A DNA stretch of 64,000 bases, from positions 640,001-704,000 of the forward strand of contig JAXGZN010000002.1 of the NCBI GenBank assembly GCA_040776945.1. Reading direction: 5' to 3'. The notes under the pieces were generated by a model. It worked only from the letters and a program-made list of their open reading frames with translations. It did not search any database and had not been told where the DNA came from. Position numbers and translations under genes: made by a program. The stretch's first letter is position 1, and the number at the start of each line of letters is the position of its first letter. This DNA comes from Methanomassiliicoccaceae archaeon (lineage in GTDB: Archaea; Thermoplasmatota; Thermoplasmata; Methanomassiliicoccales; Methanomassiliicoccaceae). Of this stretch, positions 43,597 through 60,224 are shown in pieces.

Positions 43597-45567
43597 TCAT
43601 CCCTTCCTGCGCACCCACCTGATATACAGCGCCATGCTTCCCAGCAGCACTACCGCCGCCAGGCCCGCCATGACCATCACCGGCACACCCCCGCTCTCCC
43701 CGGTGCCGCTCCCTCCCTGAGCCCCGGGATCGTCAAGGTCTATGGTCTTGGTCAGGCTCCTCGACGTGCCGGCGGCATCGGTGACGGTCAGCGTGACCGT
43801 ATGGTTGCCGCCGACCGCGAAGGTGTGGTCGACCTTCGCCCCTGCCGCGGTCTGGCCGTCATCGAACTCCCAGTGGAAGCTCAACGTGCCGTTGCCTCCG
43901 TAGGAGGAGCTGGCGTCAAAGTGGGCGGTCGTCCCGCTCGCGGTGAAGGTGAACAGTCCCACCGGGGGCATGGACCGTCCCTCGCCCTCCAGAAGACTGG
44001 CTATGACCGATCCAGAGGTGGAGCCCAAATAAAGCATGCCGTCGGAGATGGATGGGGAGGCGCGGACGTTGGCCCCCGGCTCGATGGGCTCGGTCCACTC
44101 CACGTTGCCGTCATCGCTGATGGCGACCACCCGGCTGTTGGTCTCGTTGGTGACCAGATAGGTCATTCCGTTGACGGTCACCGGCGAGCCTCCGGGCGTC
44201 TCCGATCCGTAGGAGGCGGTCCACCGCACGCTGCCGTCGAGGGACAGCATGGAGAGGCCCTGTGAGGAGATGGACACCGCTCCTTGTTTCGAGACCGCCG
44301 CCTGGCCTGCGTTGCTCGCGGTGGTCGCCTTCCACACAATCGAACCGTCATAGGATATCGATGCCGCTCCGCCTCCCGACCCGGTGCCCGCGGGGTCCGA
44401 ATAGGTGACGATGAGGCGGTCGTTCATCGCCACCGGGGCGTTCAGGGCGCCCCCGACCTTAACGCTCCATTCGACCTTGCTTCCGTCCCCGGCCACGGCG
44501 TACAGCGAGCCATCGCCGCCCGGCACATACAGGGTCACGTCAAATAGCGCCGGCGTGGCGGACGCCGTGGTTCCGATGCTTCTGCTCCACGCCCTTGCTC
44601 CTTTCGCGGTCACCGCGGTTATCGTCCCGTCATCGGCGGTGACGATCAGCAGGTTCCGAAAGGTCAAGGGGGACGCAGAGATCCCGCCGCTGGTCACTGT
44701 ATAGGTCCACAGCTCGCTTCCCGTCTCCTGATCGAAGGCGTACAGCTTGCCGTCGTCCGAGGCCACGTACACAGTGTAGTCCCATAGTAGGGGTGAGGCG
44801 GTCTGGTGGCCTCTTCCCACCGGCGCGCTCCACAGGACCTCTCCCGAAGGGTCCAGGCAGAACAGCTTCGAGTCGGTGGTGTAGGACCCGGAGGAAGCTA
44901 TGCCGGAGGTGACCGCGAATATCCTCCCCCCTGAGGAAACGATAGGCGCGTCGACGGCCCCGTTGCCGAGGTCCTTCTGCCATTTTTGGACGATGCCCGA
45001 CGGTTCATAGCTCAGGTCGCTGCCGGTGTTGGCGAAATCGCCCCTCTCCGAGATCCACGGGTCCCGATACTCGGGCGTGGCCGCCGGAGGCCCGATGTAG
45101 GGGTCCCGGGCATATATGGCGGCGATTGCCTTGGTGGCGATGGGGTCGATCCCGTCCAGGAGGGTCGCCGAGTAGCGCCATTCCTTGGTATTGCTGTCCC
45201 AGACCCATAGCCGCCAGAAGTCGTAGGGCTGCTGCGGGTTGGAGAAATTATAGTTGCCTGCGTACCCGTCTATGCTCATGATCGTGTTCCCCCAGGGAGC
45301 TTCATAAGCATGGGTCTCGCTGAGCCCCAGGGTCCGGGTGGCGTTCTCGAACACGTGGAAGCCCGTCATTCCTTTCGTCACCGGCACGTCGACCCACTGT
45401 GCGCGGCCGTTCCCGAAATCGATGAGGAAGGCGCAGGCGTCAGCCTCTTGGGCCGCGGCTGCGCCGCTGTAGGCAGCAACCGAGATCAAGGCCGAGCATA
45501 TAAGGGCGGCCAGCAAGGAGCGGCCTGTCCCGGCCCTGCCCGTTCGGGACTCAAGGCTCCCGTCCAT
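43597..45567 (-). CDS. Cell-surface protein: DUF4430-like domain, PQQ-type beta-propeller, PKD domain, C-terminal TM
   Basis: Signal peptide; LIDFGNG...I.SIDG...W.LW.W; repeated G..LW propeller blades; FDAS.S...W.F.DG...HTF PKD. Confidence 0.8.
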   Translation of the reverse strand: MDGSLESRTGRAGTGRSLLAALICSALISVAAYSGAAAAQEADACAFLIDFGNGRAQWVDVPVTKGMTGFHVFENATRTLGLSETHAYEAPWGNTIMSIDGYAGNYNFSNPQQPYDFWRLWVWDSNTKEWRYSATLLDGIDPIATKAIAAIYARDPYIGPPAATPEYRDPWISERGDFANTGSDLSYEPSGIVQKWQKDLGNGAVDAPIVSSGGRIFAVTSGIASSGSYTTDSKLFCLDPSGEVLWSAPVGRGHQTASPLLWDYTVYVASDDGKLYAFDQETGSELWTYTVTSGGISASPLTFRNLLIVTADDGTITAVTAKGARAWSRSIGTTASATPALFDVTLYVPGGDGSLYAVAGDGSKVEWSVKVGGALNAPVAMNDRLIVTYSDPAGTGSGGGAASISYDGSIVWKATTASNAGQAAVSKQGAVSISSQGLSMLSLDGSVRWTASYGSETPGGSPVTVNGMTYLVTNETNSRVVAISDDGNVEWTEPIEPGANVRASPSISDGMLYLGSTSGSVIASLLEGEGRSMPPVGLFTFTASGTTAHFDASSSYGGNGTLSFHWEFDDGQTAAGAKVDHTFAVGGNHTVTLTVTDAAGTSRSLTKTIDLDDPGAQGGSGTGESGGVPVMVMAGLAAVVLLGSMALYIRWVRRKG

Positions 45568-45875
45568 GGTCGATGACTGACCTTAATGATATTTCAAGAT
45601 TCCCGGGGTTAGGACCGTTAAGTATTGATTCCTAGGTGAACTTCCTTCCTCATCATTGGAATCTCAATGGGGCCTTGTCCGGGCCCGGCGGGGCCTCCCT
45701 GCCCTGACAGGATTGCGTGATTATCGTCATAGATAATGCCAGGGGCGTAGAACGCATGCTCTGACCGACCGGCGGTCCGCTGGCCAGCGTCACTGGCGCT
45801 CCATGCGGGGGCGAAGGCCTGAAATCGATTCCGATAATAACGCAAAAAAGGTTAATACCACTTGACTTCTCCAAG

Positions 45876-46799
45876 TTGAGATTTGCTTTGAGCAGACGAC
45901 CGCTCATTATAATGGTGGCCGCCACGGCATTGTTGTTGGGGTTGCTCATAGCCCCTGTCTCTGGCTGGGCCGGAGGGGGAGGGAACAGCAACTACCAGGC
46001 AGGCGATTGCAGTTGTCATGGAACGGTGAGCTCGGCCACGGTGACCATGTCAGCGTCCTCCAAGGTCCTCCAGCCCGGAGAGAGGGTCACCGTGACGGTG
46101 ACCGTTGCCGGCGGCGAGACCGTGAACAAGCCGCTAGGCGTCATGATAATTTCCAAACTGAGCGGGAGCAGGACCATGCCCACCGAGAACGGTTGGAAGA
46201 TCCTGTCCGATTCCGTCGGCACCGCCGTCAATTACAACGAGGTGCCCTCCTATAGCGGGAGCGCCACATTCACCTGGACCCTTCAGGCCCCTGCCAATCC
46301 CGGCGCATACACCTTGTACGCAAGGATGGAGAACAGCGTCAACGGGATAGGATACTATAAGGACTACAGCGCGGGGATCGCGTTTACGGTAAGGTCCGGG
46401 GACGGTTCCTCCCTGGTGGCCATCGAGTCGCCGGCGAACGGTTCGACCCTGACCGGGAACGTGACCGTGGGCGCCATGGTGGAGGGGAAGAACATCACCT
46501 CCACCCAGCTTCTGATAGACGGCAAGCTGGTCTCCACCGGCGACGGGAGCCCGTTAAGCTATTTGATCGATACGAACGATCTGACCGATGGGGCCCACAA
46601 GATACAGGTCATCGCGACCTCGAGCGATGGTGAGGTCATCACCAGGGAGTCCAACTTCACCGTGAACAATCACGGGGCGCTCATCTTGCCGGTCCAACAG
46701 TCCGATTGGATGCCCGCCGACATGGTCTTCCTCGCCCTGATAGGATGCATGTTGGTAGTGGGCACCCGCGGGCTCAGGAGCAGTAAGAAATGGCGTTGA
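45876..46799 (+). CDS. Secreted membrane-anchored protein with N-terminal CxCH motif, reeler-like and Ig-like domains
   Basis: Signal peptide; GDCSCHG; F.WTL.AP..PG.Y; I.SP.NG..L.G Ig fold; C-terminal TM; start approximate. Confidence 0.7.
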   Translation: MRFALSRRPLIIMVAATALLLGLLIAPVSGWAGGGGNSNYQAGDCSCHGTVSSATVTMSASSKVLQPGERVTVTVTVAGGETVNKPLGVMIISKLSGSRTMPTENGWKILSDSVGTAVNYNEVPSYSGSATFTWTLQAPANPGAYTLYARMENSVNGIGYYKDYSAGIAFTVRSGDGSSLVAIESPANGSTLTGNVTVGAMVEGKNITSTQLLIDGKLVSTGDGSPLSYLIDTNDLTDGAHKIQVIATSSDGEVITRESNFTVNNHGALILPVQQSDWMPADMVFLALIGCMLVVGTRGLRSSKKWR

Positions 46800-48013
46800 A
46801 GTTGCCAAAGACAAAGTTGCCCGCCGGGCTGCGCTTGCCGCCCCGCGGTAAAGGTATCGACATCACACATCTCAGAGCGCTTCCATCGAAGCTCCCCAAG
46901 GTCGTGCGGAGGAACGCGGAACGGTACATCGGGCTCGTCATCGGGTTCTTCCTGTTCGTGGCGCCGTTCACGGTGTTCACCTGGTTCGCCTACTCGCTGA
47001 CCGGCTCTTCGGGGAACGCTTCCATTCACTCCATCTGCTACCGCCTGCCCCTTGATTGGCTCATTGGAGGCTCGGCCGCCTCGGTCGGCCCCATCGCCGC
47101 CGCCTTCGTGATAGGCGCGCTGGCAGTTGCGCTGTTGTTCGGCCCGCTGTTCTGCGGCCGCCTGTGCCCGGTCGGCGCGATGAGCGAGCTGGTGAGCCGG
47201 ATCACCCCCCTTCCGTCAAGATACAGGATGCGGATAAGGGACACAAGGGTGACGGCAAGCCTCCGCTACGGCTTCCTGGCCGGTTTCATCCTAATGGGCC
47301 TGGCGGCCGGCGGACGGGTGGCAGAGTGCTCCTACGGGGTCGACCTCGGAAGGTACTGCTCCTCCTCCATCACGGAGTACATGTCACTGGGGCTGTTCGG
47401 CGGAGCGCTGCCGGCCAACTTCTGGAACACCGGCCTGCTGCTCACCCTCTTCGCCTGGCTGGTGCTCGGGGGCATCATGATGGTCGGAGGACGGGGCTGG
47501 TGCCTGTTCTTCTGCCCGCTGGGAGCGCTGTCCGGGCTGTCCCACGCGCTGGGCTCAAGGCTCGGCCTGTACCATGTCCAGTTCCACGAGGACAAGTGCC
47601 GGCGGTGCCGGCGGTGCGAGGTCAGCTGCCCGATGTGGGCCATCGGCCTCGACCGAAGGGTCGAGCACTCGCTGTGCATAAGCTGCGGGGAGTGCGTCCA
47701 TAACTGCTCGTTCAAGGCCTATCAGGGAGGCTTCGGCCGCACCGGGGTCAAGATCACCGGGGCCGTGAAGGACCTCCTTGGACGGATCAGGTCGGTCGGC
47801 ACCTTCGCCCTGGCCTCCTCCACCGCGCCGGTGGCGGCGGTCCTCACCGGGCCCTGCGCCTCGGTGGGCTGCGCGGCCTGCCCTCTCGGGGGCGCCTGCT
47901 CGCTCGCCATGCCCCTCCTCTTCGGAGGAATGATCGCCGCTAGGAGGTCCAGGAGGATCAAGGCGGCTCTCTCCTCGCTTCGCGGACGCCTTCGCCGGAA
48001 GAGGAAGGACTAA
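46790..48013 (+). CDS. NapH/MauN/RdxA-like membrane polyferredoxin
   Basis: FCGRLCPVG and WC..FCPLG; CxxCxxCxxxCP and CxxCxxCxxxC; extra Cys-rich C-terminus. Confidence 0.85.
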   Translation: MALKLPKTKLPAGLRLPPRGKGIDITHLRALPSKLPKVVRRNAERYIGLVIGFFLFVAPFTVFTWFAYSLTGSSGNASIHSICYRLPLDWLIGGSAASVGPIAAAFVIGALAVALLFGPLFCGRLCPVGAMSELVSRITPLPSRYRMRIRDTRVTASLRYGFLAGFILMGLAAGGRVAECSYGVDLGRYCSSSITEYMSLGLFGGALPANFWNTGLLLTLFAWLVLGGIMMVGGRGWCLFFCPLGALSGLSHALGSRLGLYHVQFHEDKCRRCRRCEVSCPMWAIGLDRRVEHSLCISCGECVHNCSFKAYQGGFGRTGVKITGAVKDLLGRIRSVGTFALASSTAPVAAVLTGPCASVGCAACPLGGACSLAMPLLFGGMIAARRSRRIKAALSSLRGRLRRKRKD

Positions 48014-48043
48014 TGAGGGGCGGCGCTCATTAAGTGGGACGTC

Positions 48044-49996
48044 ATGAGCCTGGGCGATATACTCCTGGTCCTGGCGGCCCTGTCCGCGCTGACGTGCATC
48101 ATAGCGGGCCTCATGGGACCTCGAGCCGCGGCGGGCCGGGCAGCGGCCTCGTCGCGCTTCGCCGCCCTGGCCGCCTTCGCATCGATCTCCGGCGCCCTTG
48201 TCCTGCTGGCCGCGGCCTTCGCCTCCTCCGACCTCAGCTACCGCTATGTATGGTCCCATTCATCCACAGGCCTGGACGCCTTCTATAAGCTGGTCGGCGT
48301 ATGGGCGGGGGGCGAGGGAGGATTGCTGCTGTGGGCTTGGCTGATGGCCCTGTTCCTGGCGGTCGAGGTGCTGGCTGAGAGGAGGCGGGAGGCCGGTCCA
48401 AAGTACGCCGCGGCGTTCCGGGTGGCGGCATCCAGCATCGTCCTTCTCTTCTCCCTTATCCTCATGGCCGCCGACCTGTTCGGCCCCACCAACAGCGCAG
48501 AGCTGCTTCTTCACCCTGAGGGCCTGGGAATGAACATCGCGCTGCAGACCGTGGAGATGGCCGTCCATCCGCCCCTGGTCTTTTCCGCCTACGCCGCCTG
48601 CCTGATGCTCTTCTCAGCATCCATGGGCAGGCTGGTGGCGGACGATGATGGCTGGAGGGATGCCGCGCTTCCCTGGGCCAAGGTCGCCGGAGCGCTCCTT
48701 CTCGCCGGTATCGCGGTCGGCGCGGTTTGGGCCTACTATGAGCTGGGGTGGGGAGGGTTCTGGGTCTGGGACCCGGTGGAGACCGCTTCGCTCTTCCCTT
48801 TCATCGCGGTCATCGCCTTCCTGCACGCGGACCGGTCCAGGGGCGCAAGGGAGGGGGCCCTGCAGCCTTTCTTAGGCACGCTTTCCTTCGTCTTCGTGCT
48901 CCTGGCCTCTTTCATCACCCGCACCGGGGGACTGTGGGGGTCCTCCGTCCACACCTATGGGAGCATGGTCAGCGGATCGCTGGAGGCTAGGCTCGTCACG
49001 GTGCTGACAGGCGACATGGGCGTGATGGGCCTGTTCGCGGTCATCATTGTGCTTTTCGCCATCTGCCTGGTCCTTTCCTACCGGACCATGCTTAGGGCGG
49101 GCGAGAGGGGGCGGGTGAGCGCCGGGGTCCTGGCTACCGTCGCCTCCCTGCTGATCTATGCGGCCCTCCTTCTCCTGCTGCTGATAAAGAACACCGGCCT
49201 GGACCAAGGGGCCAACTTCATCGAGATCACCGAGAAGACCACCCTGCTCTCCTTCCCCATGGCGCTCCTTCTGCTGTTCGGCCTGATAAGCGGCCCGCTG
49301 GGCCGACGGAACGCCGCGAGGGCATGCGCAGCGGTGGCCGCGGCCTCGGTCGCGCTGGCCGCGGCCGCCCTGATCCTCGGGACCTTTCCTTGGCTCGCAG
49401 CGCTCGCCGCACCACCCGCGGGGACGGTCATCGGCGCATCGGCGTATCGAATCGCCATGATCGACCGGGCGCCGCCCGCCAGGTGGCTGGGCGGGGCAGG
49501 CGGGCATCTCGTTCATGCCGGGATCGCCATCGTGCTGCTGAGCTTCATAATCTCCTCAACCATGCAGGCCCACCTCCCTGAGGACGATGGGAACATGTCC
49601 GTCGGCAGCGAGGCGAGGGTGGGCGGCCATACCATTATCCTTACCGGACTGAGCGTGAGACCTTGGACCTCTTCCACGGGGGAGGCGGGGGAGGAGAGGG
49701 CCGCCACCTTCGTGGTGAGGTCCGGCGGCCCCGAGATCACCGTGACCGTTTCCAACCTATACAAGGCGGAAGGTTCAGGTTTCACGCTGGTGCGCTCGGG
49801 GACGGCCATAATCAACGGCGCCGTCGAGGACCTCTATCTTGATTATGGGTGGGTGAACGGCGATACCGCGATGGTCCAAGCGAGGGTCGTTCCCTTGGTC
49901 AGCGAGGTATGGGCCGGGTTCGTCCTGGCGACCGCAGGCATGGTCGCCACGTTGTTCGGACGGCCTCCTCGGGAACGTCCGGACGATTTGTTCTGA
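48044..49996 (+). CDS. ccmF: Cytochrome c heme lyase CcmF/NrfE family
   Basis: W.G.EG.LLLW, HPP, WAY.ELGWGGFW.WDPVE.AS, LH, TR.G..SVH and H.G motifs; about 15 TM. Confidence 0.9.
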   Translation: MSLGDILLVLAALSALTCIIAGLMGPRAAAGRAAASSRFAALAAFASISGALVLLAAAFASSDLSYRYVWSHSSTGLDAFYKLVGVWAGGEGGLLLWAWLMALFLAVEVLAERRREAGPKYAAAFRVAASSIVLLFSLILMAADLFGPTNSAELLLHPEGLGMNIALQTVEMAVHPPLVFSAYAACLMLFSASMGRLVADDDGWRDAALPWAKVAGALLLAGIAVGAVWAYYELGWGGFWVWDPVETASLFPFIAVIAFLHADRSRGAREGALQPFLGTLSFVFVLLASFITRTGGLWGSSVHTYGSMVSGSLEARLVTVLTGDMGVMGLFAVIIVLFAICLVLSYRTMLRAGERGRVSAGVLATVASLLIYAALLLLLLIKNTGLDQGANFIEITEKTTLLSFPMALLLLFGLISGPLGRRNAARACAAVAAASVALAAAALILGTFPWLAALAAPPAGTVIGASAYRIAMIDRAPPARWLGGAGGHLVHAGIAIVLLSFIISSTMQAHLPEDDGNMSVGSEARVGGHTIILTGLSVRPWTSSTGEAGEERAATFVVRSGGPEITVTVSNLYKAEGSGFTLVRSGTAIINGAVEDLYLDYGWVNGDTAMVQARVVPLVSEVWAGFVLATAGMVATLFGRPPRERPDDLF

Positions 49997-50149
49997 ACCT
50001 TGCGGCCTTCGAGAGGGATATCGAGACCAGAATATGAGAGGGGTCACCTGCGTAGGATGAGCTTCGAGGCATGCTCCGGCCACGGTCAATATGGGCCCTT
50101 TGTAAAGTACGATCGATAAGAAAAAGGGAGGAAGGGTGAGCCTGGTGGC

Positions 50150-50989
50150 TCAGTTCATTTCCTTGGCCATCTTCTTGGTAAGCCCGTACGCTACCGGCAC
50201 CAGGAGGACTGCCAGCGCTATCGCGAACGCCCAGGACACGTTGGCAACTATCGAGGTGACGTTCGGGAAGGTGGCGAATATCGCGCCCGCGCCGATGATC
50301 AGGAAGATCGAGTACAGAACGAACTTTGCGTACCCGGCGACAGAGCGGAACTCGGCGTGGTCCTCGACGATGGACCGGACAAGGGTATCGGTCAAGATTA
50401 TGCCGACGCCGATGATCACGAAGCCGAGAATCAGCGGATAGATCGTTCCTCCGGACAGCAGCATGGTGTCGAGGGCCAGCAGGATGATGAAGGCGATCAG
50501 GCCGATGAACAGGAGGTTCTTGATCATATCGGCGATCTCTACCTTCTCGGGCGGGAACATCGGCCGGATCATCTTGCCGATGAAGTTAGCCAGGAAGTCC
50601 ACCAGAACCACGCCCAGTATGAGTATCAACAGACCGCCGAGAAGCCTCGGGAGGTAGTCGGCCACGACCGTGAGGTATGAGCCCAGCGTGCCGCCAATGC
50701 TCAGGATCTCGATGGCCCAGACGATGGCCAGGACGATGATGAAGGCCTTTACGAACATTCCGATGACGTTCGATAGGTCCAAACCGGCCGCTCTGAACGA
50801 TTTGCCGGTGCTGCTCTGATCGAACGCCCTCTCCATGCCGATCTTCTCGACCAGAATGTTAACGGCCTTCCCGACAATAGTGCCGACCAGCCAGCCGATG
50901 GCTATCACGATCACGGCGGCCAATATCGTCGGGATCGCGAGTATGATGTCCTCCACCATTAACTCCAATGTCTCTATGATGTCAACCAA
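50150..50989 (-). CDS. Membrane protein with MscS-type TM-helix repeats (CmpX-like)
   Basis: IP.ILAA..I..IGW.V and YLP.LL..L.I repeats. Confidence 0.65.
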   Translation of the reverse strand: MVDIIETLELMVEDIILAIPTILAAVIVIAIGWLVGTIVGKAVNILVEKIGMERAFDQSSTGKSFRAAGLDLSNVIGMFVKAFIIVLAIVWAIEILSIGGTLGSYLTVVADYLPRLLGGLLILILGVVLVDFLANFIGKMIRPMFPPEKVEIADMIKNLLFIGLIAFIILLALDTMLLSGGTIYPLILGFVIIGVGIILTDTLVRSIVEDHAEFRSVAGYAKFVLYSIFLIIGAGAIFATFPNVTSIVANVSWAFAIALAVLLVPVAYGLTKKMAKEMN

Positions 50990-51607
50990 CTCTAATCACT
51001 TCCTTTGCATGGGGAGCCGAATCTTCATATATGCATTATTTTTATTTTTTTCGTTATATGTTGATTCTTATGCTTCAAAATATAAATATCTGGATATCCA
51101 TTCTTGCGAGTTAAAAAATTTGTCCTTATAATGAACATAATGCCTGCCGTCCTTCCTTGAGCAATCCAAACGGCCCTTGGGACGCTTTTTTCGGCAGCGG
51201 TCCGCCGGTCCTCGTAGCCGGCATGCTCAAGGCCGCGGCGGTCCGGTAACAAATTCTGATGGCCGGAGACGGAGGCGGGCATATCGCCGGTCCGGACGGC
51301 ACCGGGCCTCTTTGCTCGATGCTTGAACCATGTTGTCATTCCATTGCAGTGTTCGCCGGGCGCATCGGGCCTGGGCGTCGTTGCTCCATTCGGGGCGATG
51401 TCCCTCCTGATCGACATCACCTTTGTTGGGCGGCCCCCATCTTCTAACGCCATAGTTCCTTCCGCAATCGACCAGCGAGGTTATTTCATGACAGGGTCAC
51501 GTCGCCTCCAACAGACGTCCGACGATGAGTCCTGGTCAACGTTATGTGATGGGACAACTAAGGTTCGATGCCGTAAGGTTTTACGTGAAGGGTCATGCCG
51601 GCGCCGA

Positions 51608-52159
51608 TCACGCGCTGGTGATGAGGCCGAGCTTCCTGCGCAGGATCTCGGCGGTCTCAGGCACAAGGTCCGTTGACCAGAAGATGCGCTCGTAGACGTC
51701 CTCGGGAGTCCAGGCCTGGACATCCTTGGCCGAGAGGTGGGCCACGGCCAGGAGCCTCTCCAACACTTTCTCATCGCTCGTGGCGGGAAGAGCGTTGATG
51801 TTGACGGGGCCGAAGGTGGCGAAGCTGGAGGCCAGACGCAGGCCGTTCATCAGCGCCTGCCTTTTCTCTCGTCCGAAGAGCTCGTAGGCCAGCTTCTCCG
51901 CCAGGGCGGACAGGGACTCCTTGATCTCCGGCGGGATGCCTTGCAGCCCGCCGATCTCCCTCTTTAGGTCGTTCGAGCGTGCCTTGGTCAGAAGCCGGCA
52001 GTCGGTTGAGCGGATCACCAGCCGCTCCAGGACCGAGTCGTACATGTCCAGGGGGTCCCTGTCCCTGAGCTGCGGAACGTTGGTGTAGCCGACCGCATAG
52101 ACCAACAAGGCCGCGGACGGCGTGATGCCCGGCACTTTAATGATGTCCATCAATGGCAT
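51608..52159 (-). CDS. Hypothetical protein with HhH/DUF4332-like N-terminus
   Basis: VPGI.P..A.L...G..NV.QL...DP motif. Confidence 0.5.
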   Translation of the reverse strand: MPLMDIIKVPGITPSAALLVYAVGYTNVPQLRDRDPLDMYDSVLERLVIRSTDCRLLTKARSNDLKREIGGLQGIPPEIKESLSALAEKLAYELFGREKRQALMNGLRLASSFATFGPVNINALPATSDEKVLERLLAVAHLSAKDVQAWTPEDVYERIFWSTDLVPETAEILRRKLGLITSA

Positions 52160-52333
52160 AGAGCGCTCACCTGGCTCGAATAATATTGAGGAGGTAGATA
52201 TCAATTGCTATGGGGACCTTTGGTCCCGGGGGTCGGTACAGCGTGTTCTGGCAGGGAGGAAGGGAACGGGACGAAGCGGGTCTTTCATCCCGAAGTAGGT
52301 CTTTACCGGCCGCTGTTCCATATCGGCCGCAGC

Positions 52334-52933
52334 TCAACCGCCATTGTGTTTCAGCATCTCCTGTACCAGGGCCATGATGTCAGAACAGGTGGCATTCGCA
52401 TCGATATTGCCGCGAACCTCTCCGCTTGGAAAGCCCTCGGTTATGACGTTGATGTATAGATTTCCCGCGTCCAGCTCGCCAATGAACTTGGCCATTGAGG
52501 CCCCGGCCATCGGTCCGGTGAGGGTACGTTCGGTAATGGAGCCCAGAGCGATAATGCCTTCATCATCCTCGCCATGTCTGGTATGCATTACAAGGGAGAG
52601 ATATGCGACCGCTTCACCGGTCTCCCTTCCATCCCGGGCCCAATTGATGCTCACCTGGGTTACGTCGTCGTCAAGCTCAGAGACGTGGACCATGTAGCAT
52701 ATCTCGTTCAGACCGTCATTGAGCCAAAAGACCGCGACCCCAGTGCCTTCAGTATAAACTGGGTGAGGTCTCACTTGGTCTCCGAACAGCGGCACTATTA
52801 CGGCTGGGTTCCAGCCGTGCGTCCCATCTTTTTCGGTCTGAGCATTCGTGGCAGTGAATATCACAGCCACGGCCGCGACGACAGCAACGAGCAAGCCAAA
52901 TGCGATCATTACCTTGCCAAGTTCCATTCTCAT
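52334..52933 (-). CDS. Secreted CHRD-domain protein
   Basis: Signal peptide; L.G.Q..P.V.T..TG.A and G.LY.NV.T..FP.GEVRG motifs. Confidence 0.8.
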   Translation of the reverse strand: MRMELGKVMIAFGLLVAVVAAVAVIFTATNAQTEKDGTHGWNPAVIVPLFGDQVRPHPVYTEGTGVAVFWLNDGLNEICYMVHVSELDDDVTQVSINWARDGRETGEAVAYLSLVMHTRHGEDDEGIIALGSITERTLTGPMAGASMAKFIGELDAGNLYINVITEGFPSGEVRGNIDANATCSDIMALVQEMLKHNGG

Positions 52934-53281
52934 CCCTCGTCCCTCGACCTCTGACCTTCAGGATTAATAATTAGCTCCTCAGCTAAGGCGAGGGTTAACT
53001 GTCAAGTCGCTGAGATAACGAAAATCGGCGAGTTATCGAACAGCGGGGACAACCGCCCTTGGCCGAGCCTATCGGGCCTGCCCGCGCAACGATGATGAGC
53101 GTCCGAGCATGAGCGACCTATTATGCAATGGTTAGACGTCCATGTGTATGGACGTGACTTTGTTCAGAGTCGGTGGCGTTCGGCCGTCCCGTCCAGATCT
53201 AAAACAGAAAGGAATCGGCCATCGAGGTACTTCAGAGATGTGCCGCCCTTGGTCCGAACATTAACTCATGCGTTCCTATGA

Positions 53282-53479
53282 CATGATCTGCGCCGCGGCG
53301 GGAGCCATATGATGTATCGGGCCGGCGTCCAGCTCGAAAAGATAGCCTGAATATTCGGGCATTCGGACAGTAGGACGACCGCCCATTACATTGGGCTCGA
53401 TATAAAGGATATGAGCGCTCGTATGGAGATTCAGTGTATGTGGGAATTTCCGCGTTTCACTGAAAATAGTAAGAAATGA
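53282..53479 (+). pseudogene. Tyrosine integrase C-terminal remnant
   Basis: HDLRR...GVQLEKIA*IFGHSD.RTT.HYIGLD..DM with internal TGA at 53348; ends just before the att copy. Confidence 0.75.
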
Positions 53480-53494
53480 GACAGGTCGGGAAAT

Positions 53495-53513
53495 TGGTGG
53501 ACAGAGCTGGATT
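53495..53513 (-). repeat. att site: duplicated 3' end of tRNA-Ala (with CCA)
   Basis: GTGGACAGAGCTGGATT (53497-53513) vs GTGGACAGAGCGGGATT (63493-63509), 16/17 identical. Confidence 0.8.
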
Positions 53514-53810
53514 ACTTTCCAAGAAACTAACTGGCTGGAGCCCGTTTTGAACCACGTTCGGTTCACCACCCCCGATCGAGGGTTGATGAGAAAGTAAATC
53601 AAACCTTTTCCTCGCCTTTTTTATAAACCGCCTATTCAGCACTAGTATGCCCACTCCTCAATACTCCCCTTATTTTCCTTATCCTCTTAATTATTATCAA
53701 CACTCTCACCTCATTGAATTAATGACCTCAAAGGTAGAGCAGAGCAAAGGGGATAGCTTAGTACTAATAGGTCGATCAGGACCGATCGCCTCGTGCGTGG
53801 TTCCATATGT

Positions 53811-54725
53811 TCATACCGGGCCTGCAGGGCTAAAGTTGGCAAACTTGCCAATCCTGAGCCTTTCTGATCGGTAGACCTCCCTTATGCCCATCCTGTGAAG
53901 TCTCTCACGATCCGGTACCTCGTCTCTGAGTTCCCTCTGTGCAAGGACGCTTCTCACAGAATCGGTCGAGAGCATTCCTTCCCAAATGGGCCAGGAGAAG
54001 AAATCCTTCTTGTTCATTCTTGTGAAACCTGTTGTCTCTAGCTGACCATCCCTTACAACGCTAGGGAATAGTTGAAGTCCCCGATATGCCAACAGGTTGG
54101 CAGCCCAGACCGTCTTGGGCGGCGAACCGCTTGGATTTTCCCACATGAGCGCATATCTCCGGTCCTCGACGGGGTCCCAGCGCATAGAGTGCTTAGGATC
54201 GTTGTATGTCCATCTATCAAAGAGGCATTGATGGATCTTCTTCTGATCTACGCATCCGATGAGGTCCCTGACGGTCTTAAGAAAGTATTGATGGCCTGAC
54301 CCCTTGATGAAACAGAAAGGGGTGACATATATTTTTCCGCTTTCCTCATCCATACATATGGTACAGCCGAAATTCGTCATCAGATCGACAGAGGTGCGAT
54401 CGGTCGAGCGAGCTTCATCCACTACCTTTATGGCATGTGCCTTGAACACATCCTGACCAACAACGACGTTATCTCCCAGTTCGAGCTCTGTGGTCTTTTT
54501 CTTTAAGCTTTGGTAGATACGGTCCGACAACTGCTCATCTGTAATGGGATTTTCCACTCTCAAAACAGGGTGCCACGTATCTTCCTCTGACCATGACATT
54601 CGTGCACGTATGGAATGATCGGAGGATATGACCGCAAGAACCCCCAATGCGCTTAGATAGCCCAGTGGGTTGATGCCGTCAAGCCCTCTCAGTACTTTGT
54701 CTGATCCAGACGGATCGGAGCTCAT
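53811..54725 (-). CDS. cas8g: Type I-G (I-U) Cas8g2/Csb3-like 'Cas3-extension' protein
   Basis: L.GLDG.NPLG.L.ALG, WD..EDR.YAL, AN.LA..GL..FP and F.WP.W motifs; overlaps the cas3 stop. Confidence 0.7.
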   Translation of the reverse strand: MSSDPSGSDKVLRGLDGINPLGYLSALGVLAVISSDHSIRARMSWSEEDTWHPVLRVENPITDEQLSDRIYQSLKKKTTELELGDNVVVGQDVFKAHAIKVVDEARSTDRTSVDLMTNFGCTICMDEESGKIYVTPFCFIKGSGHQYFLKTVRDLIGCVDQKKIHQCLFDRWTYNDPKHSMRWDPVEDRRYALMWENPSGSPPKTVWAANLLAYRGLQLFPSVVRDGQLETTGFTRMNKKDFFSWPIWEGMLSTDSVRSVLAQRELRDEVPDRERLHRMGIREVYRSERLRIGKFANFSPAGPV

Positions 54726-55945
54726 TCTAGGCCCTCCTCATCTGCCGACTCATATATTAGATCGTATTCACTTGAGCGATGGTCAGCCAACCTGAGGATA
54801 GCTTCGAGGTAGGCTTCCCCCCACCAGCCAAACCGCCTTATGCCTTCCCAGAATCGATCGCCAACACCGCTGCCCACTAGATCCATTCCAGTATCGCTGG
54901 AGTGCCTTAGAATCGAACCTCCGGTTTCGAGGGTGACCTCGCGAGGGCTTTGGTCCCAGACCACAGGGGCGAATGGTCGGCAACGACCGTGGTGGCTTGA
55001 GATCAGGTGGAGAATCAGGTCGCGTTCAACACCGAGCTCTATCTGTTCCGCCAAACGCGCCGAAAGCAGCTCGTGCCTTCCGCCCTTGGGGTAGCCTGCC
55101 CTGATTCGTGCCTGTTCGTATTGGGTGAACGTGGATGCTAACCAATCCGATTTCGCCAATAGATCCGTACCTGCGGCTGCGGCCCTTATATCTCCGCCGC
55201 GAAGGAGGGCCTGAAATCTTATGTCGGCTTTGCCTGTGTCATGCAAAGCTGAGGCCTTTTTCATTGGAACAACAAACGAGCTTGGCAGGGTTTTTATGCA
55301 AAACTCGCTGGCGATTCGTTCAACACTATCCGAGTGAGAGCTAAGAGTCACAGGTGCGGCTGGTCCATCTCTCGATCGCACTCTTCCTTTCTCGCCCCAA
55401 ATGATCAATCCTTGTCCCTGAGGATATGGAACTACGTTGGTGCGTTTTAGACTGGCCACGCCGTTCACGATCTCCCCCATTCGCCCGGGCAAGCCACTAG
55501 CGTTCGTCAACTCGCTCAATGCGTCCCTTAGATCATCTACGAAGTCGTTATCATATGATCTCTCGGCAAGATTGGGATCATTGATCAGATCTAGGATCCT
55601 ATCTTTCACCCTCGATGCTGGCCAATTTGAAATCAATGACGGATGTAGTCTCAGCAGGACTCGTTTCCCCGTTACGAATGCAGCCTCATCTCCACGGTCA
55701 ATGGCGGCCGAGTTGGGAGGAACGTCTGGGATGTGTCCGAGCGACTCTCAACCTCCCATGGAAGAGGGCAGAACAACGATTTCCCCCGGCTGTACCTCAC
55801 TAGGATTGTCTACGACCCTGCTCTCAGCACCGCCCCTCCACACGAGCATGTGCATCGGACACATCGGCTCTCCCCCCTCATTAGAGGTAAACGCCCCCTC
55901 TACGTCCGTCAGGTCCGAATCGTGGTTGACCGTTCTCACCAACGG
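54722..55945 (-). pseudogene. cas3: Truncated type I-G Cas3 (C-terminal HD nuclease kept, helicase lost, internal TGA)
   Basis: L..H...V, LHD.GKAD.RFQ, RHE..S, HL..SHHG..RP and GWWG.AYLE..LRLAD motifs; in-frame TGA at 55748-55750. Confidence 0.8.
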
Positions 55946-56051
55946 ACATATTGAGAGACGAGGACTGGGAGATTATCGGCGGAAGAACGATGAGATGTTC
56001 AAGGGTGGTGCTGGCCCGTAGGAACTGGTCGCGACCGGCGCGACACCTATT

Positions 56052-56078
56052 AATACGAATTAAATATTCTTGTTACTA
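56052..56078. promoter_or_regulatory. Putative metal-regulator operator AATAC-N15-GTTACTA (copy 1)
   Basis: Same half-sites and spacing as 60251-60277. Confidence 0.5.
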
Positions 56079-56137
56079 ATGCACGGAAAATGCTGGGTTC
56101 GGTCCTCCGGAGGAGTCCATGCATCAGAGGCTCTTAT

Positions 56138-56995
56138 ATGCTGGACGTGAAAAACATCGAGTTCTCGTACAATGAGGAGAGGGTCCTGGAGGATGTATCC
56201 TTTCAGGCCGTAGAAAATGAGGTCATATCTATCATGGGACCGAACGGCGTGGGCAAGACCACCCTTCTCAAATGCTTGTGCAACTTCCATCGTCCCCAGA
56301 ATGGGAAGATAACCATAGACGGTAAGGATGTGTCGTCCATATCGAGCCGGGAGCTGGCCAAGCATATAGGATATGTTCCGCAGCGGGCGAACACCACCAG
56401 GTCGACGGTGTTCGATTCGGTCTTGATCGGACGACGACCTTACATAGAGATATCAGCCACCAAGAGGGACCTCGAGGTCGCATGGAACGCGCTGGACTCG
56501 CTTGGCCTGGGTAGCCTGGCCTTGCGATACGTCGACGAGATCAGCGGCGGCGAGCTTCAGAAGGTGCATATCGCCCGGGCCATGGTGCAGGAACCCCGAA
56601 TACTGGTGCTGGACGAACCAACCAACAACCTTGACATCGCCAATCAGCATGTCACGTTGCACAATATAATTGATGCCGTGCGTTCCAGGGGGATGTGCAC
56701 GATAATGACCATGCACGACATCAACTTGGCCGTGCATTATTCGGACCGGCTCATGTTCATGAAGGGAGGGCGCATCTTCGCCTTCGGGGGACCGGATATT
56801 ATCGACGAGAGGTTGATCAAGGAGGTATACGGGATAGATGCGGACGTGATCATGCATAAGGGCGTCCCCTTCGTCATCCCCCATACCGCCAAGAACGGTC
56901 ATCCGAGATACACGCATAACCACGTTCATGCGGTCGATCACGACCCCTCAGACCACGTGCATGAGGCTCTTGGAATAGCCCAGGCCAAGGACTGA
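56138..56995 (+). CDS. Iron-chelate/cobalamin-type ABC transporter ATPase with His-rich tail
   Basis: GPNGVGKT, ISGGE.Q, LDEPTNNLD and HDINLA motifs; C-terminal HNHVHAVDHDPSDHVH. Confidence 0.9.
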   Translation: MLDVKNIEFSYNEERVLEDVSFQAVENEVISIMGPNGVGKTTLLKCLCNFHRPQNGKITIDGKDVSSISSRELAKHIGYVPQRANTTRSTVFDSVLIGRRPYIEISATKRDLEVAWNALDSLGLGSLALRYVDEISGGELQKVHIARAMVQEPRILVLDEPTNNLDIANQHVTLHNIIDAVRSRGMCTIMTMHDINLAVHYSDRLMFMKGGRIFAFGGPDIIDERLIKEVYGIDADVIMHKGVPFVIPHTAKNGHPRYTHNHVHAVDHDPSDHVHEALGIAQAKD

Positions 56996-56996
56996 G

Positions 56997-57788
56997 CTAC
57001 ACGTCCCATACCAGTAGTCTCATCCTGTTCAGGCACCTGAACCTGAACTCCCCACCCTCGACCATCGGTTCCAGCACCTTTCGTACGGCCGGTTCGACCT
57101 CCATGCCCTTCCCATAAGGCCTGAAGTCCCGGACAATCTCCGAGACAGCCGTTTCCAACGGAATGGAACGCTCCACCGGGGTGCTGAACTCGGTGACCTC
57201 CGGCCTCCTGCCGATCGATCTGAGTTTCCTCTCCACCAGGTCGGACCCCCTTTCGGCGAAGGAGTAATTCTTGCCCATCTCCCTCCAGACCTCGGCGTGC
57301 AGGTCATCCCAGCCGTTGACGATCCACATGATGTGTGCGCAATGGTGGTCGGTCCAAGCTTCCATCCTTTTTAGCCCTTCGACGGACCCTGTCCCGGGAC
57401 ACAGGGAGGACACAACCGCCGAGCTCCTCCTCTCCGGCTCGTACTCCATGACGTCCGCCTTGACCAATGTGACATTGCTATATCCCATATCTCGCACGGA
57501 GCTCGAAAGGCGGTCCAGCATGACCTGGGAGGTGTCTAGGCCCACCACTGACCTGACCAAGGGTGCCATTGGGAGGGTATACGTTCCAGGACCGCAACCG
57601 AGTTCCAGTACGGTCGCATCGCAGTCTAGGACCCCGGTTCGGTGCAGATGCCCGACGATCTCGTTGACCATGGACCCCTGCTGCGTTCCCGAATACCAGG
57701 AGGCGATGTCGTCCCAGAAGTGGAGCGCCCTCTGCCTGTCGAACCCCTCCCCGACGAACGGGTGGGACCCGGACCGTTGACAGTTCAT
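56997..57788 (-). CDS. Class I SAM-dependent methyltransferase (metal-ABC-associated)
   Basis: FWD..A..Y, VLELGCGPGT and LDTS..ML motifs; overlaps the permease stop. Confidence 0.85.
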   Translation of the reverse strand: MNCQRSGSHPFVGEGFDRQRALHFWDDIASWYSGTQQGSMVNEIVGHLHRTGVLDCDATVLELGCGPGTYTLPMAPLVRSVVGLDTSQVMLDRLSSSVRDMGYSNVTLVKADVMEYEPERRSSAVVSSLCPGTGSVEGLKRMEAWTDHHCAHIMWIVNGWDDLHAEVWREMGKNYSFAERGSDLVERKLRSIGRRPEVTEFSTPVERSIPLETAVSEIVRDFRPYGKGMEVEPAVRKVLEPMVEGGEFRFRCLNRMRLLVWDV

Positions 57789-58876
57789 CGCAGTACCTTC
57801 CTCTTCTTCCTGGTCCCCCTTATCAGAAGGTAAATGAACAGCGGTCCGCCTAGGAACGAGGTTATTATGCCCACCGGCAGCGTATAGACCAGCAGGTTCT
57901 GTCCTACGCAGTCCGCGATGAGCAGGATGATGGCTCCCAGCAGCATCGAGCCCGGGAGCACATACTTATGATCGTTTCCCAGGAACATCCTGACGATGTG
58001 CGGACCGAGCAAACCTATGAAGGCTATTATTCCCATGAACGAGACCACGATAGATGTCATTAGTGCTGAGAGGAACAACGTCTCCATCCTAAGCCAATCG
58101 ACCTTGATACCCAGGGACATGGCCACGTCGTCCCCGGCGTCCAAGGCGTTGAAGTCCCATCTGCGCCACAGGAAGTAGGCGATGACCGCCATGGAGATGA
58201 TGGCGATCAAGGTGAGCTCACCCCAGGACGCCTTTCCAAGGGAGCCGAACTGCCAGAAGACTATGGCCGAAAGGGCGTAATCGTTGTAGATGTACTGAAG
58301 CATGCTTATGCCGGCCGAGAAGATGGAGCTGAGGGCCACACCCGCCAGGACCATGGTTTCCGCGCTGACCCTGGTCACCTTGACCAGGAGGATGATTATC
58401 ACCGTGGCGATCAGGGCCCATGTGAACGCGCTGGCCGAGACCAGGTACGGATTGTTGATGAGTATGGAGGCATGGCTTTGCCCGACCACCAGTCCTCCTC
58501 CCAGTGCTAGAATGCCTAGGGAAGCGCCGAAGGCCGCGGCGTTCGAGATGCCCAGAGTGTAAGGTGAGGCGATTGGGTTCCTGAGGACGCATTGCATCAC
58601 CGTACCCGCAACGCCCAGGGCAAACCCGGCGAACAGGCCGGAGACGATCCGGGGCAGATACAGGTTCCAGAACAGTATCACATCGACCTTGGAATTCTGT
58701 GGGTTGTCCTTATCGAAAATGACCTGGACTATCTCCTCGAACGAAAGGGACCCCAGGTCGATCTTGAGCACGGCTATCGTCGAAATCAAGAGAAGTAGCG
58801 CCAAGGCCACCAGGAATAGGTTCTTCCGCCTTGAATGGGCTAGATACCCTTCTATTCCTCCATTTCTACTGTTCAT
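57785..58876 (-). CDS. FecCD/BtuC-family ABC permease
   Basis: LPR, Q..LRNP.ASP.TLG, GSL, G...A.SLG, I.FIGL..PH and PVG..TS..G.P.F motifs. Confidence 0.93.
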   Translation of the reverse strand: MNSRNGGIEGYLAHSRRKNLFLVALALLLLISTIAVLKIDLGSLSFEEIVQVIFDKDNPQNSKVDVILFWNLYLPRIVSGLFAGFALGVAGTVMQCVLRNPIASPYTLGISNAAAFGASLGILALGGGLVVGQSHASILINNPYLVSASAFTWALIATVIIILLVKVTRVSAETMVLAGVALSSIFSAGISMLQYIYNDYALSAIVFWQFGSLGKASWGELTLIAIISMAVIAYFLWRRWDFNALDAGDDVAMSLGIKVDWLRMETLFLSALMTSIVVSFMGIIAFIGLLGPHIVRMFLGNDHKYVLPGSMLLGAIILLIADCVGQNLLVYTLPVGIITSFLGGPLFIYLLIRGTRKKRKVLR

Positions 58877-58949
58877 CGACCGCCACCATGCCTGACCTGA
58901 GACGCTAGTATGATAAAAATATTGAGCTGGCCTGGGCCAGCGAAGTGGT

Positions 58950-60224
58950 TTAACGCATCGCCGAGAAGGTCATGGTGCCTTCTTCGGATATGAAAATCTC
59001 CCCGTACACGGGATTCGCGCGGCGCACCATGTACATGTTGTTCATGTCCATGTATATGGATGTCGGCTCAGACGGCGCTGGGACATTGGTCGCGGTTATA
59101 TCACGGTTGGACATGTGCGAGCCCAGGAACGCGTCATAGACCGCGTTAACCTTCTGCTCGAACTGCTCCTCGGTCAATAGCCCGTGGGCGTCCTTGAGGA
59201 CCTGGTACGCGGATATCAGGACGTTCTCGAAGTTCATGCCAGTCCATATGTACGGGAAGGCCACATAGGCTTCGTGCCCGATGAACAGCTGCAGGATGCC
59301 CTTGGCCGTGTTGTCCGTGCTCATGTAGAGCCCGGTAGCATCCATGAAGAGGAGAACCTCATCGCCCTCCGCCTCTGCCGCTTGTATGCCCTCCTTGATC
59401 TTGGTCGCCGAATAGGTGCTCACACCCGACCCGTTCATGTCCATGCCCTCGTTGGCCATGATGTTCTTCACCCCGGCCAGGGCGAAGGGCATGTAGTAGG
59501 CGATGGACGAGTCCGGACCGTGGGCTCCATTGTAAGCCAGGGAACCGATGTAGGCGCTGACGTTGGTCGCGGCCTGAGTGGCGATGGTCCTAATGTCCTG
59601 AACCGTATCCTCTATGGCGGCAAGGATCTCCTGGCCCCTCTTATCCATGGCCAGCACCTTGGAGAGCAGGTCAATCTGATCCCTCAGAACGTCCACAACC
59701 CTGAAGGTCACCGGTTCTAGGAAGGTGTAGACGTTGGCGATGGCAACGACGTTCAAGCCCCCATCCAGGAGCGATTGGTACTCGTTGGAGTAATCGGTCT
59801 TGAAGGTTACGGGCACGACCACCAGGGACGGCTCGGCGGTAAGGATGTTGGCCACGTCATCCACGGTGATCCCGCAGTTGGTATGGGAGAAGTCATTGGC
59901 ATCGGATTCGTTGACATCCGCCAGAGCGCGCCCGTGGTACATGAACGACTTGCCCATGAAGTTGGTCTTGTCGTTGATGTCTATCATAATGCACTTGTCA
60001 GCAAGGCCGAAATAGGTCATCCATCGGAAGGGGTCCTGGCCTATCGCCACGATGCCGCGGTCCAGATTGGTGACGGGTTGTATCTCTCTGCCTGCGAAGT
60101 CGATGTCCTCGCCTATGACCGATTCGTTCCCATCGTCCGGCTTTTGGAGCAGAATGCTTCCGCCTATGGCGGCGATGATGATTATCGCAACAGCAGTTAT
60201 TGCGAAGTAGATCTTCCTATTCAT
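58950..60224 (-). CDS. TroA/FecB-like ABC substrate-binding protein
   Basis: N-terminal TM, D.AGR, IVAIG and I....P..V motifs; operon with the permease. Confidence 0.75.
   Translation of the reverse strand: MNRKIYFAITAVAIIIIAAIGGSILLQKPDDGNESVIGEDIDFAGREIQPVTNLDRGIVAIGQDPFRWMTYFGLADKCIMIDINDKTNFMGKSFMYHGRALADVNESDANDFSHTNCGITVDDVANILTAEPSLVVVPVTFKTDYSNEYQSLLDGGLNVVAIANVYTFLEPVTFRVVDVLRDQIDLLSKVLAMDKRGQEILAAIEDTVQDIRTIATQAATNVSAYIGSLAYNGAHGPDSSIAYYMPFALAGVKNIMANEGMDMNGSGVSTYSATKIKEGIQAAEAEGDEVLLFMDATGLYMSTDNTAKGILQLFIGHEAYVAFPYIWTGMNFENVLISAYQVLKDAHGLLTEEQFEQKVNAVYDAFLGSHMSNRDITATNVPAPSEPTSIYMDMNNMYMVRRANPVYGEIFISEEGTMTFSAMR

Follow-up and report, generated by a model that had tools for sequence, protein, structure and literature searches.

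A three-gene operon in the genome of a Methanomassiliicoccaceae archaeon may encode an unusual cytochrome c system in an order of methanogens regarded as cytochrome-free. The window analyzed here is a stretch of 64,000 nt (NCBI GenBank assembly GCA_040776945.1, contig JAXGZN010000002.1, positions 640,001 to 704,000), and all coordinates without a locus label count from its first letter. The operon comprises three plus-strand open reading frames (ORFs) between 45876 and 49996, with genes 1 and 2 overlapping by 10 nt and genes 2 and 3 lying 30 nt apart. The ORF list thereby bears out a preliminary description of this DNA, made from its letters alone, in which a tight three-gene operon with the same coordinates, overlap, and gap had been proposed. 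It is suggested, with a probability of about 0.55, that gene 3 encodes a reduced System-I-derived synthase that puts scavenged heme on an atypical surface cytochrome encoded by gene 1, while the polyferredoxin encoded by gene 2 supplies or carries electrons. The three genes are as follows.

45876..46799, plus strand: gene 1, 307 aa; signal-peptide protein with a choice-of-anchor V beta-sandwich, a Big_7 Ig domain, and a C-terminal membrane anchor
46790..48013, plus strand: gene 2, 407 aa; NapH-like membrane polyferredoxin with two CX3CP motifs (Fer4_5), two 4Fe-4S motifs, and a C-terminal hydrophobic hairpin
48044..49996, plus strand: gene 3, 650 aa; divergent CcmF/NrfE-family membrane protein, the sole PF01578 protein of the genome

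Gene 3 matches PF01578 (Cytochrom_C_asm) with 87.1 bits against a cut-off of 29.9, and its alignment to the CcmF/NrfE model TIGR00353 runs nearly end to end (residues 51-640 of the protein, positions 1-575 of the 578 in the model). The residues expected to hold heme are listed below, each of them kept in 14/14 orthologs.

48749..48781, plus strand: WWD motif W-G-G-F-W-V-W-D-P-V-E of gene 3 (residues 236-246)
48566..48568, plus strand: His175 of gene 3, aligned with the first external His of CcmF (chain 6zmq_A)
48824..48826, plus strand: His261 of gene 3, the membrane His 3' of the WWD motif
48950..48952, plus strand: His303 of gene 3, the second external His
49514..49516, plus strand: His491 of gene 3, the second membrane His

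As in CcmF, two of the four His are presumably ligands of a membrane heme b and the other two ligands of the heme at the WWD site. The orthologs in which the WWD motif and all four His are invariant come from two families of the order and from genomes with or without CcmE, and gene 3 thus looks able to handle heme. The earlier assignment of gene 3 as a full CcmF with a WWD-type motif and conserved His is upheld by these orthologs together with the alignment to 6zmq_A. Gene 3 nevertheless belongs to a distinct clade, with a drop in score between its members (342 bits) and ordinary bacterial CcmF (161 bits), and in a quick tree (midpoint root) the CcmF-like sequences of the order form one clade on a long branch.

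The host genome (2.17 Mb, 59.6% G+C, 99.8% complete) contains mcrA, and the nearest public homologs of all three genes are from Methanomassiliicoccus sp. Gene 3 is the only PF01578 match in the whole genome, so that CcmC is missing; no match to CcmE was found in it at E<=1 and none in ten other sampled genomes of the genus, and the best genome match to CcmB scores 15.8 bits against a cut-off of 24.9. The absence of ccmABCE, first noted for the window, therefore extends to the whole genome, in which the presence of CcmC and CcmE alongside CcmF that would define System I was not found. Likewise, among 11,380 six-frame ORFs none has two or more CxxCH motifs and 39 have one. Sixteen of these 39 are probably spurious, and two of the other 23 have a hydrophobic N-terminus, these being a zinc-ribbon/TPR protein and a 113-aa ORF without family or support. 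Since a search for CxxCH proteins, which the preliminary description had called for, thus gave no convincing secreted candidate, gene 1 stands as the one evident candidate for a substrate of gene 3.

Gene 1 encodes a protein with a hydrophobic signal-like segment behind a basic n-region, and hydropathy and alignment predict that the protein is exported across the membrane and faces outward. The sequence matches the NCBIfam choice-of-anchor V model (NF041895) with 52.5 bits against a cut-off of 42, as the sole match in the genome. The canonical c-type CXXCH motif is absent, and a single C-S-C-H stands in its place. Hydropathy and domain matches agree with the preliminary description of a signal peptide, a single CxCH near the mature N-terminus, Ig-like domain structure, and a C-terminal anchor.

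45939..46349, plus strand: choice-of-anchor V type beta-sandwich domain of gene 1 (residues 22-158), from NF041895 and the AlphaFold model
46008..46019, plus strand: CxCH site C45-S46-C47-H48 of gene 1, about a dozen residues past the Gly-rich mature start
46416..46610, plus strand: Big_7 Ig-like domain of gene 1 (residues 181-245), PF17957, E 1.5e-11
46710..46766, plus strand: C-terminal hydrophobic anchor of gene 1 (residues 279-297), then a basic tail, from a hydropathy scan; model helix 265-302

Structure models of gene 1 are all-beta, with a mean pLDDT of 81 for the whole protein and 83 for the N-domain (AlphaFold). A family profile built on the N-domain and run against a library of 1.84 billion proteins retrieved 309 representative proteins at E<=0.001, and the motif was counted in the 122 representatives that cover the site among the best 150 of the 309. 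All 122 hold the His and at least one Cys. The site takes the form C-X1-5-CH in 104 of them (CX3CH 58, CX2CH 19, CX1CH 11, CX5CH 10, CX4CH 6), and four hold only the Cys adjoining the His. All ten orthologs from the genus have CxCH (nine CSCH, one CDCH). One genome of the genus carries an extra gene 1 paralog with a canonical C-N-S-C-H, a sister-family ortholog has C-D-N-C-H, and among close relatives a Met about ten residues 3' of the site is nearly invariant. Conservation of CxCH, raised as a question by the preliminary description, thus holds within the genus and gives way beyond it to spacings of one to five residues and, in some relatives, to a single Cys. Fold searches with the whole gene 1 model and with the N-domain returned generic Ig-like sandwiches only, with tied scores; matches to copper proteins and cytochrome f were kept as leads and not taken as findings. 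A Reeler lead from the ESM Atlas fell below threshold (0.88), and the other ESM Atlas matches were Thermoplasmatota clusters without names.

The association between genes 1 and 3 can be followed through rearrangement. In a sample of 201 Methanomassiliicoccales genomes, a gene 3 relative was found in 20 (9/10 of the other genus genomes, 10/47 of a second family, and 0/114 of the largest family), two of these relatives being broken or fragmentary. After exclusion of four loci (two at contig ends, one with a broken gene, one a fragment), 16 usable loci remain, and at all of them a gene 1 relative lies within ~6 kb of an intact CcmF-like gene. Genes 1, 2, and 3 are colinear at ten loci of the genus. 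At three sister-family loci, genes 1 and 2 are divergent from gene 3, and at one locus gene 3 is divergent from a gene 1 relative, which is followed by a small His-bearing membrane protein. At two loci (G043 and G056), gene 3 is followed by an MFS gene, then CcmE, CcmC, CcmB, and an ABC ATPase, and then two gene 1 relatives. A NapH-like gene is present at 13/16 loci and missing from both ccmABCE loci. CcmE occurs in 4/201 genomes of the order, all of the sister family, in or beside a ccm cluster. The assumption of a lineage without cytochrome machinery accordingly does not hold throughout the order as far as Ccm genes are concerned. At a further locus (L041, G106:C1:1143511-1153222), TGA stops break up the CcmF-like gene, CcmE is encoded by a shortened gene, and ccmA-C were not seen, which looks like a decaying ccm cluster; a P-type ATPase-like ORF lies near it.

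All three genes are under purifying selection, with pairwise dN/dS of 0.08-0.32 for each gene across four ortholog pairs, and no reading frame is disrupted in the window or in 9/10 other sampled genus genomes. Metatranscriptome libraries from sludge and digesters also contain the operon stretch: 17 contig pieces, at least 99% identical to the window, from four runs in three studies extend across both gene junctions and cover genes 1 and 2 and parts of gene 3, though DNA carry-over is possible and such contigs are no proof of transcription. No contig covers 45700-45846, and coverage is also missing from a large part of the 3' half of gene 3 (~49230-49520 in each of the four runs); these gaps indicate neither a transcript end nor absence.

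Gene 2 has the features of a NapH/MauN-type membrane ferredoxin with a Cys-rich tail, and its motifs (two CX3CP, two 4Fe-4S, and a Cys4 motif) confirm this part of the preliminary description. Its Cys at 122/126, 238/242, 270-280, and 296-306, in two Fer4_5 stretches and Fer4, are all invariant in an alignment of relatives, and the tail reads C356-X4-C361-X2-C364-P-L-G-G-A-C370.

47573..47722, plus strand: two 4Fe-4S ferredoxin motifs of gene 2 (residues 262-311), from Fer4 matches and Cys positions; invariant in the alignment
47855..47899, plus strand: Cys4 motif C-X4-C-X2-C-P-L-G-G-A-C of gene 2 (residues 356-370), inside a hydrophobic stretch of ~45 residues

Public records call homologs of gene 2 NapH. 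Its scores lie below the curated NapH cut-offs (52.2 versus 213 bits for TIGR02163; 48.7 versus 234 for NF007013), its alignment to the NapH models is limited to their C-terminal third, and no NapG, periplasmic nitrate reductase, or amine dehydrogenase partner was found among the genes of the locus. Full-length relatives with the Cys4 tail are found in the genus only, while relatives of the ~290-aa core (41-51% identity) occur in Methanomethylicia-type archaea, Bathyarchaeia, Methanoregulaceae, and other archaea. The core was found at 79 loci, and relatives of gene 1 or gene 3 lie nearby only at 11 of these, which are labelled Methanomassiliicoccales. The Cys4 motif adjoins the core at 11/11 Methanomassiliicoccales loci and at 6/9 other archaeal loci tested, and in some relatives it is encoded as a separate small ORF. 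At all five inspected loci of other archaea, the gene before the core encodes an unrelated secreted protein of ~195 aa, whose C-terminus reads G-G-x-C-H or C-C-S, and no gene-1-like or CcmF-like gene lies within ~8 kb. Since the NapH-like/Cys4 module is found elsewhere without CcmF, it can serve a non-heme partner; the polyferredoxin seems to serve secreted Cys-His proteins generally, rather than the lyase as such. The proposal that the NapH-like gene is a dedicated partner of the lyase was thus not borne out.

These five loci (L125:7423-9149, L118:7345-9233, L116:7426-9077, L117:7375-9060, and L147:6314-8014) are of Methanomethylicia-type archaea and Methanoregulaceae. The ~195-aa protein has no family match and its gene overlaps the start of the NapH-like gene; profile comparison with the gene 1 domain gave no sign of homology (probability 0.75%). 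At several of the loci, a small ORF with C-X3-4-C-X2-C-P-M-G-G-x-C follows the NapH-like gene, and at 4/5 a PadR-type regulator gene lies divergently upstream (the Pfam match was checked for L125 only). The set formed by the ~195-aa protein, the NapH-like protein, and the Cys4 motif looks like an undescribed trans-membrane redox module. For the proteins of the window, complex prediction pairs gene 2 with gene 1 at a score of 0.45 (best control 0.00), with a partner pLDDT of at least 81 and runs agreeing in at least 51% of contacts. The mark used for such predictions was passed by 58/80 solved complexes and 2/110 mismatched pairs, and at scores <=0.60 by only seven of those 80 complexes and by both mismatches, such that the prediction lends weak support to a contact between the two proteins.

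Gene content, motifs, conservation, synteny, selection, and RNA-library presence are observed; how heme is attached and where it comes from, how gene 2 is oriented and what it does in redox terms, and what physiological role the operon has are inferred, as follows. The gene 1 protein would be exported and anchored at the cell surface, where a flexible N-terminal arm bears C-S-C-H. Scavenged heme may reach an outward-facing WWD site on gene 3 with no need for an export step, and gene 3, as a descendant of System I CcmF, would fix it to CSCH by thioether bonds without CcmABCDE or CcmH. The Fe-S clusters of gene 2 would lie on the cytoplasmic side, with the Cys4 hairpin extending into the membrane, so placed that electrons could move between the ferredoxin pool of the cytoplasm and the outer side of the membrane. 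Such electrons would hold the heme iron and the cysteines reduced while attachment proceeds, and gene 2 would probably go on to carry electrons to or from the surface heme when the protein is at work.

Each part of this scheme has a counterpart among known systems. With the CcmF of Thermus thermophilus (6ZMQ), which belongs to System I and acts with CcmH, gene 3 shares PF01578, the full-length architecture, the WWD motif, and the four His positions. It differs from System I CcmF in that the host genome is without CcmC, CcmE, CcmB, and CcmH, and in that gene 3 itself lies below the curated cut-off, sits on a long branch, and neighbors a putative substrate with CxCH. Dedicated lyases for atypical motifs include NrfEFG for CXXCK and CcsA1 for CX15CH, which act alongside a complete general maturation system. 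Here, too, a CcmF/CcsA-family protein is encoded beside one protein with an unusual motif, whereas the host is without a general maturation system and the motifs of those lyases are not CxCH. The System II protein CcsBA is a single membrane protein that uses a WWD motif and membrane His to handle heme without a CcmE-type chaperone. The mode of action proposed for gene 3 is similar, although gene 3 is of the CcmF type and not CcsA/CcsB. Gene 2 shares with NapH, MauN, NosR, and CcoG (Fer4_5) the two CX3CP motifs between membrane helices and the two 4Fe-4S motifs, and it departs from them in its sub-threshold NapH scores, its extra Cys4 hairpin, its secreted Cys-His partner, and an operon with no NapG/NapA-type partner.

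Cytochrome f is a c-type cytochrome with a beta-sandwich fold and its heme site at the mature N-terminus, and gene 1 resembles it in having a heme-type motif past the signal peptide, a beta-sandwich, and a C-terminal anchor. A cytochrome f chain is among the fold matches of gene 1 (Z 8.6, rmsd 3.6, 126 aligned), tied with dozens of unrelated Ig-like folds, and the likeness is one of analogy and not kinship. YcnI also has a C-terminal anchor. The likeness of gene 1 to YcnI and the AmoB cupredoxin domain comes with low TM scores (0.37-0.51); both rely on an N-terminal His instead of Cys-x-Cys-His and are unconnected with CcmF. Among archaea, the CcmABCEF of Methanosarcina acetivorans is a streamlined System I without CcmD, H, and I, as set out in the available text of PMC9084895. 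The relatives at G043 and G056 have a similar ccmA-B-C-E...F cluster beside gene-1-like genes, whereas the genus of the window lost or never had ccmABCE and has a NapH-like polyferredoxin in the operon instead.

Several results weigh against heme attachment to gene 1. Gene 3 scores only 159.4 bits to TIGR00353, for which the curated cut-off is 569, and the CcmF_C domain (PF16327), present in more distant CcmF matches, is not reported for gene 3 or in the precomputed domains of its clade, though the NCBIfam alignment still spans the C-terminal part. CcmF is not known to function in the absence of holo-CcmE, and we know of no natural or tested heme attachment to CxCH; the literature search found no biochemical report of heme attachment to CXCH, while one pipeline lists CXCH as a motif pattern. 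The site itself varies, with the Cys adjoining the His lost in 14/122 family representatives, which hold only the upstream Cys, and C-S-[A/F]-H found at three sister-family loci that have CcmF and NapH genes. The best Foldseek matches of the N-domain, at modest scores, are the copper-binding AmoB cupredoxin domain (E 9e-6, TM 0.51) and YcnI. The NapH-like/Cys4 module exists without CcmF or gene 1, beside a secreted Cys-His protein, in other archaea. Among 401 Thermoplasmatota genomes, the gene-1-like domain occurs in 93 and PF01578 in 195, with 92/93 having both; this co-occurrence speaks for the heme reading but is inflated by the shared ancestry of the genomes, and outside the order, ccm or NapH-like genes were found by tblastn within ~8 kb of a gene 1 relative at 0/20 loci. 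The lone exception among the 93, a genome that is 78% complete and in which no PF01578 was found, counts in favor of heme instead, its gene-1-like copy lying inside a multiheme cytochrome c cluster.

The supply of heme is a further difficulty. AhbD and AhbC lie far below cut-off in the host genome, which also has no AhbA/B-type domain, no ferrochelatase, and no heme uptake system that could be identified. No Ahb gene exceeds its cut-off in any of the 201 genomes of the order, and searches for an AhbA/B domain and for ferrochelatase gave nothing in the genomes checked, two of which have a full ccm cluster. The search for heme (ahb) synthesis genes suggested by the preliminary description thus fits a lineage with no known heme pathway. 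The host does, however, encode an intact 536-aa catalase (PF00199, 618 bits), and KatG is present in 2/10 other genus genomes; none of the genomes checked yielded cytochrome bd. It therefore seems that the lineage uses heme while having no known synthesis route, and since a catalase is present where no known heme pathway is, scavenging is the simplest reading and the most likely source of the heme. In the control genome of Bacteroides thetaiotaomicron, PF01578 and catalase were matched and ferrochelatase was not. The monofunctional catalase gene of the host (G000:C1:1014079-1015689; L190:380-1990) is found in 0/10 other sampled genus genomes. At E<=1e-40, 18/201 genomes of the order, most of them from families that lack a CcmF-like gene, encode radical SAM proteins that align to the whole AhbD model with ~300 bits (cut-off 500) (e.g., G024:C1:575603-576634 and G037:C63:260-1288).

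The main rival, though an unlikely one, is that the Cys/His arm of gene 1 forms a metal (Cu, Fe, or other) or redox-thiol site that gene 2, with its Cys4 hairpin, reduces from the cytoplasmic side, in the manner of the Fer4_5-family cupric reductase CcoG, and that gene 3 is a mere neighbor with a separate or residual role. It ranks as the main rival because it fits both the CcmF-free module elsewhere, in which the NapH-like core and Cys4 motif stand beside the unrelated ~195-aa Cys-His protein at 5/5 inspected loci, and the copper-protein fold leads, AmoB and YcnI being the top Foldseek matches and both binding copper at the mature N-terminus. The variable spacing and single-Cys variants of the motif, the heme synthesis genes not found in the host, and the weak complex prediction (0.45 versus 0.00) are also in its favor. 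What it fails to explain is a selected CcmF-like gene with all heme residues beside gene 1 at 16/16 loci in three arrangements, or the relatives of gene 1 that stand beside a full ccm cluster or inside a multiheme cytochrome cluster, and the fold matches to which it appeals are generic Ig-like sandwiches with tied scores.

Three further alternatives are less likely. One is that the group attached to gene 1 by gene 3 is not protoheme but another tetrapyrrole or cofactor, a possibility also allowed in the preliminary description; this is improbable. In its favor, no known pathway to heme b was found in the host, the motif departs from canonical CxxCH, and methanogens must make F430 and corrinoids from precorrin-2; yet the WWD motif and the four heme-holding His are unchanged, and the heme catalase of the host implies heme in the cell. 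In addition, thioether formation of the CcmF type uses the vinyl groups of heme, which to our knowledge F430, corrinoids, and siroheme do not have. It is more improbable still that gene 3 matures another cytochrome c elsewhere in the genome and stands next to gene 1 by accident: the 39 ORFs with a single CxxCH provide nominal substrates, but none of them looks secreted, the two with a hydrophobic N-terminus being the zinc-ribbon/TPR protein and the unsupported 113-aa ORF, and the adjacency of genes 1 and 3 persists through rearrangement in two families. Least probable of all is a decaying remnant of a lost Ccm system with no present function. Such decay would account for the missing ccmABCE and has a parallel in the G106 relative, with its broken CcmF-like gene (TGA stops) and truncated cluster, but not for frames that are intact in the window and in 9/10 other genus genomes, dN/dS of 0.08-0.32, and identical contigs in RNA libraries of three studies. 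Heme attachment by gene 3 to gene 1 is thus still favored, and the interpretation given in the preliminary description is, overall, partly supported.

A broader claim can be put forward only tentatively, namely that some "cytochrome-free" Methanomassiliicoccus make a cytochrome. A lone CcmF-type synthase, acting without CcmABCDE or CcmH and powered by the ferredoxin-linked polyferredoxin, would load scavenged heme onto the CxCH site of the surface protein, and the polyferredoxin (with its Fe-S clusters and Cys4 hairpin) and the surface heme would make up a trans-membrane conduit to partners, minerals, or electrodes. Methanomassiliicoccales are stated to lack cytochromes in the available text of two reports (PMC10804542; bioRxiv 10.1101/2024.03.29.587405), and a genome survey found CcmCF or AhbABCD in 0/12 genomes of the order (PMC8351635). 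Extracellular electron uptake has been described for a Methanomassiliicoccus strain, with only an Fpo-like complex and archaella proposed as entry points in the part of that report available (bioRxiv 10.1101/2024.03.29.587405). The available text of PMC4429474 mentions the genus solely for cell structure, and that of PMC9084895 does not mention it. No description of the operon was found in the literature searched, although supplementary tables of the survey and of transcriptome work may list its genes.

If the heme reading is true, the operon could explain how such microbes exchange electrons with their surroundings, and it would be a testable candidate conduit for the uptake described in Methanomassiliicoccus (partial text of bioRxiv 10.1101/2024.03.29.587405). 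A surface heme protein would also require a footnote to the textbook split that sets "methanogens without cytochromes" apart, CcmF would prove able to act without its chaperone CcmE, CxCH would be added to the heme c motifs, and a large overlooked family of archaeal C-Xn-CH cytochromes would come into view. The gene 1 family is large (309 representative clusters; 93/401 Thermoplasmatota genomes) and without described function, so that one experiment would serve to annotate many genomes. Should the site bind a metal instead, several lineages of methyl-reducing methanogens would still have, in the NapH-like/Cys4 module and its secreted Cys-His partners, an undescribed trans-membrane redox system.

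Other features of the locus concern the start of the operon and its surroundings. The TTG at 45888 is a likelier start for gene 1 than 45876 and gives the N-terminus M-S-R-R-P-L, matching orthologs; contigs from the four RNA-library runs begin at 45891-45897, just 3' of this TTG. Reading of the sequence points to one possible promoter element.

45853..45858, plus strand: possible archaeal TATA-like box TTAATA, ~30 nt 5' of the likely start of gene 1

The neighbors of the operon are a beta-propeller/PKD protein and a mechanosensitive-channel-like protein. The former, encoded on the minus strand at 43597-45567, is a secreted protein of 656 aa with PQQ-like beta-propeller repeats, a PKD domain, and a C-terminal anchor; its gene is divergent from gene 1, and an ortholog holds the same position in at least six loci of the genus. 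The G+C content is ~0.61-0.66 over 16001-50000 of the window versus 0.53-0.57 over 50001-64000 (genome mean 0.596), and it falls directly downstream of gene 3, placing the operon at the edge of a G+C-rich block.

Relatives of gene 1 beyond the order stand in other settings. In the multiheme cluster (L090:4877-13002), a gene-1-like protein with C-V-N-S-C-H lies among a NapC/NirT-type tetraheme protein, a seven-heme-type cytochrome, a cytochrome c7-type protein, and cytochrome b561. In small-genome marine-type Thermoplasmatota, a conserved trio (L094:5290-9607, L098:6721-11125, L093:6076-9472, and L101:5182-9616) consists of a protein of ~885-916 aa, with an N-terminal CxCH in 3/4 loci, a gene-1-like protein with C-G-G-[SA]-C-H, and a membrane protein of 185-196 aa without a family. 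This kind of membrane protein also follows gene 1 relatives in L034 and L033.

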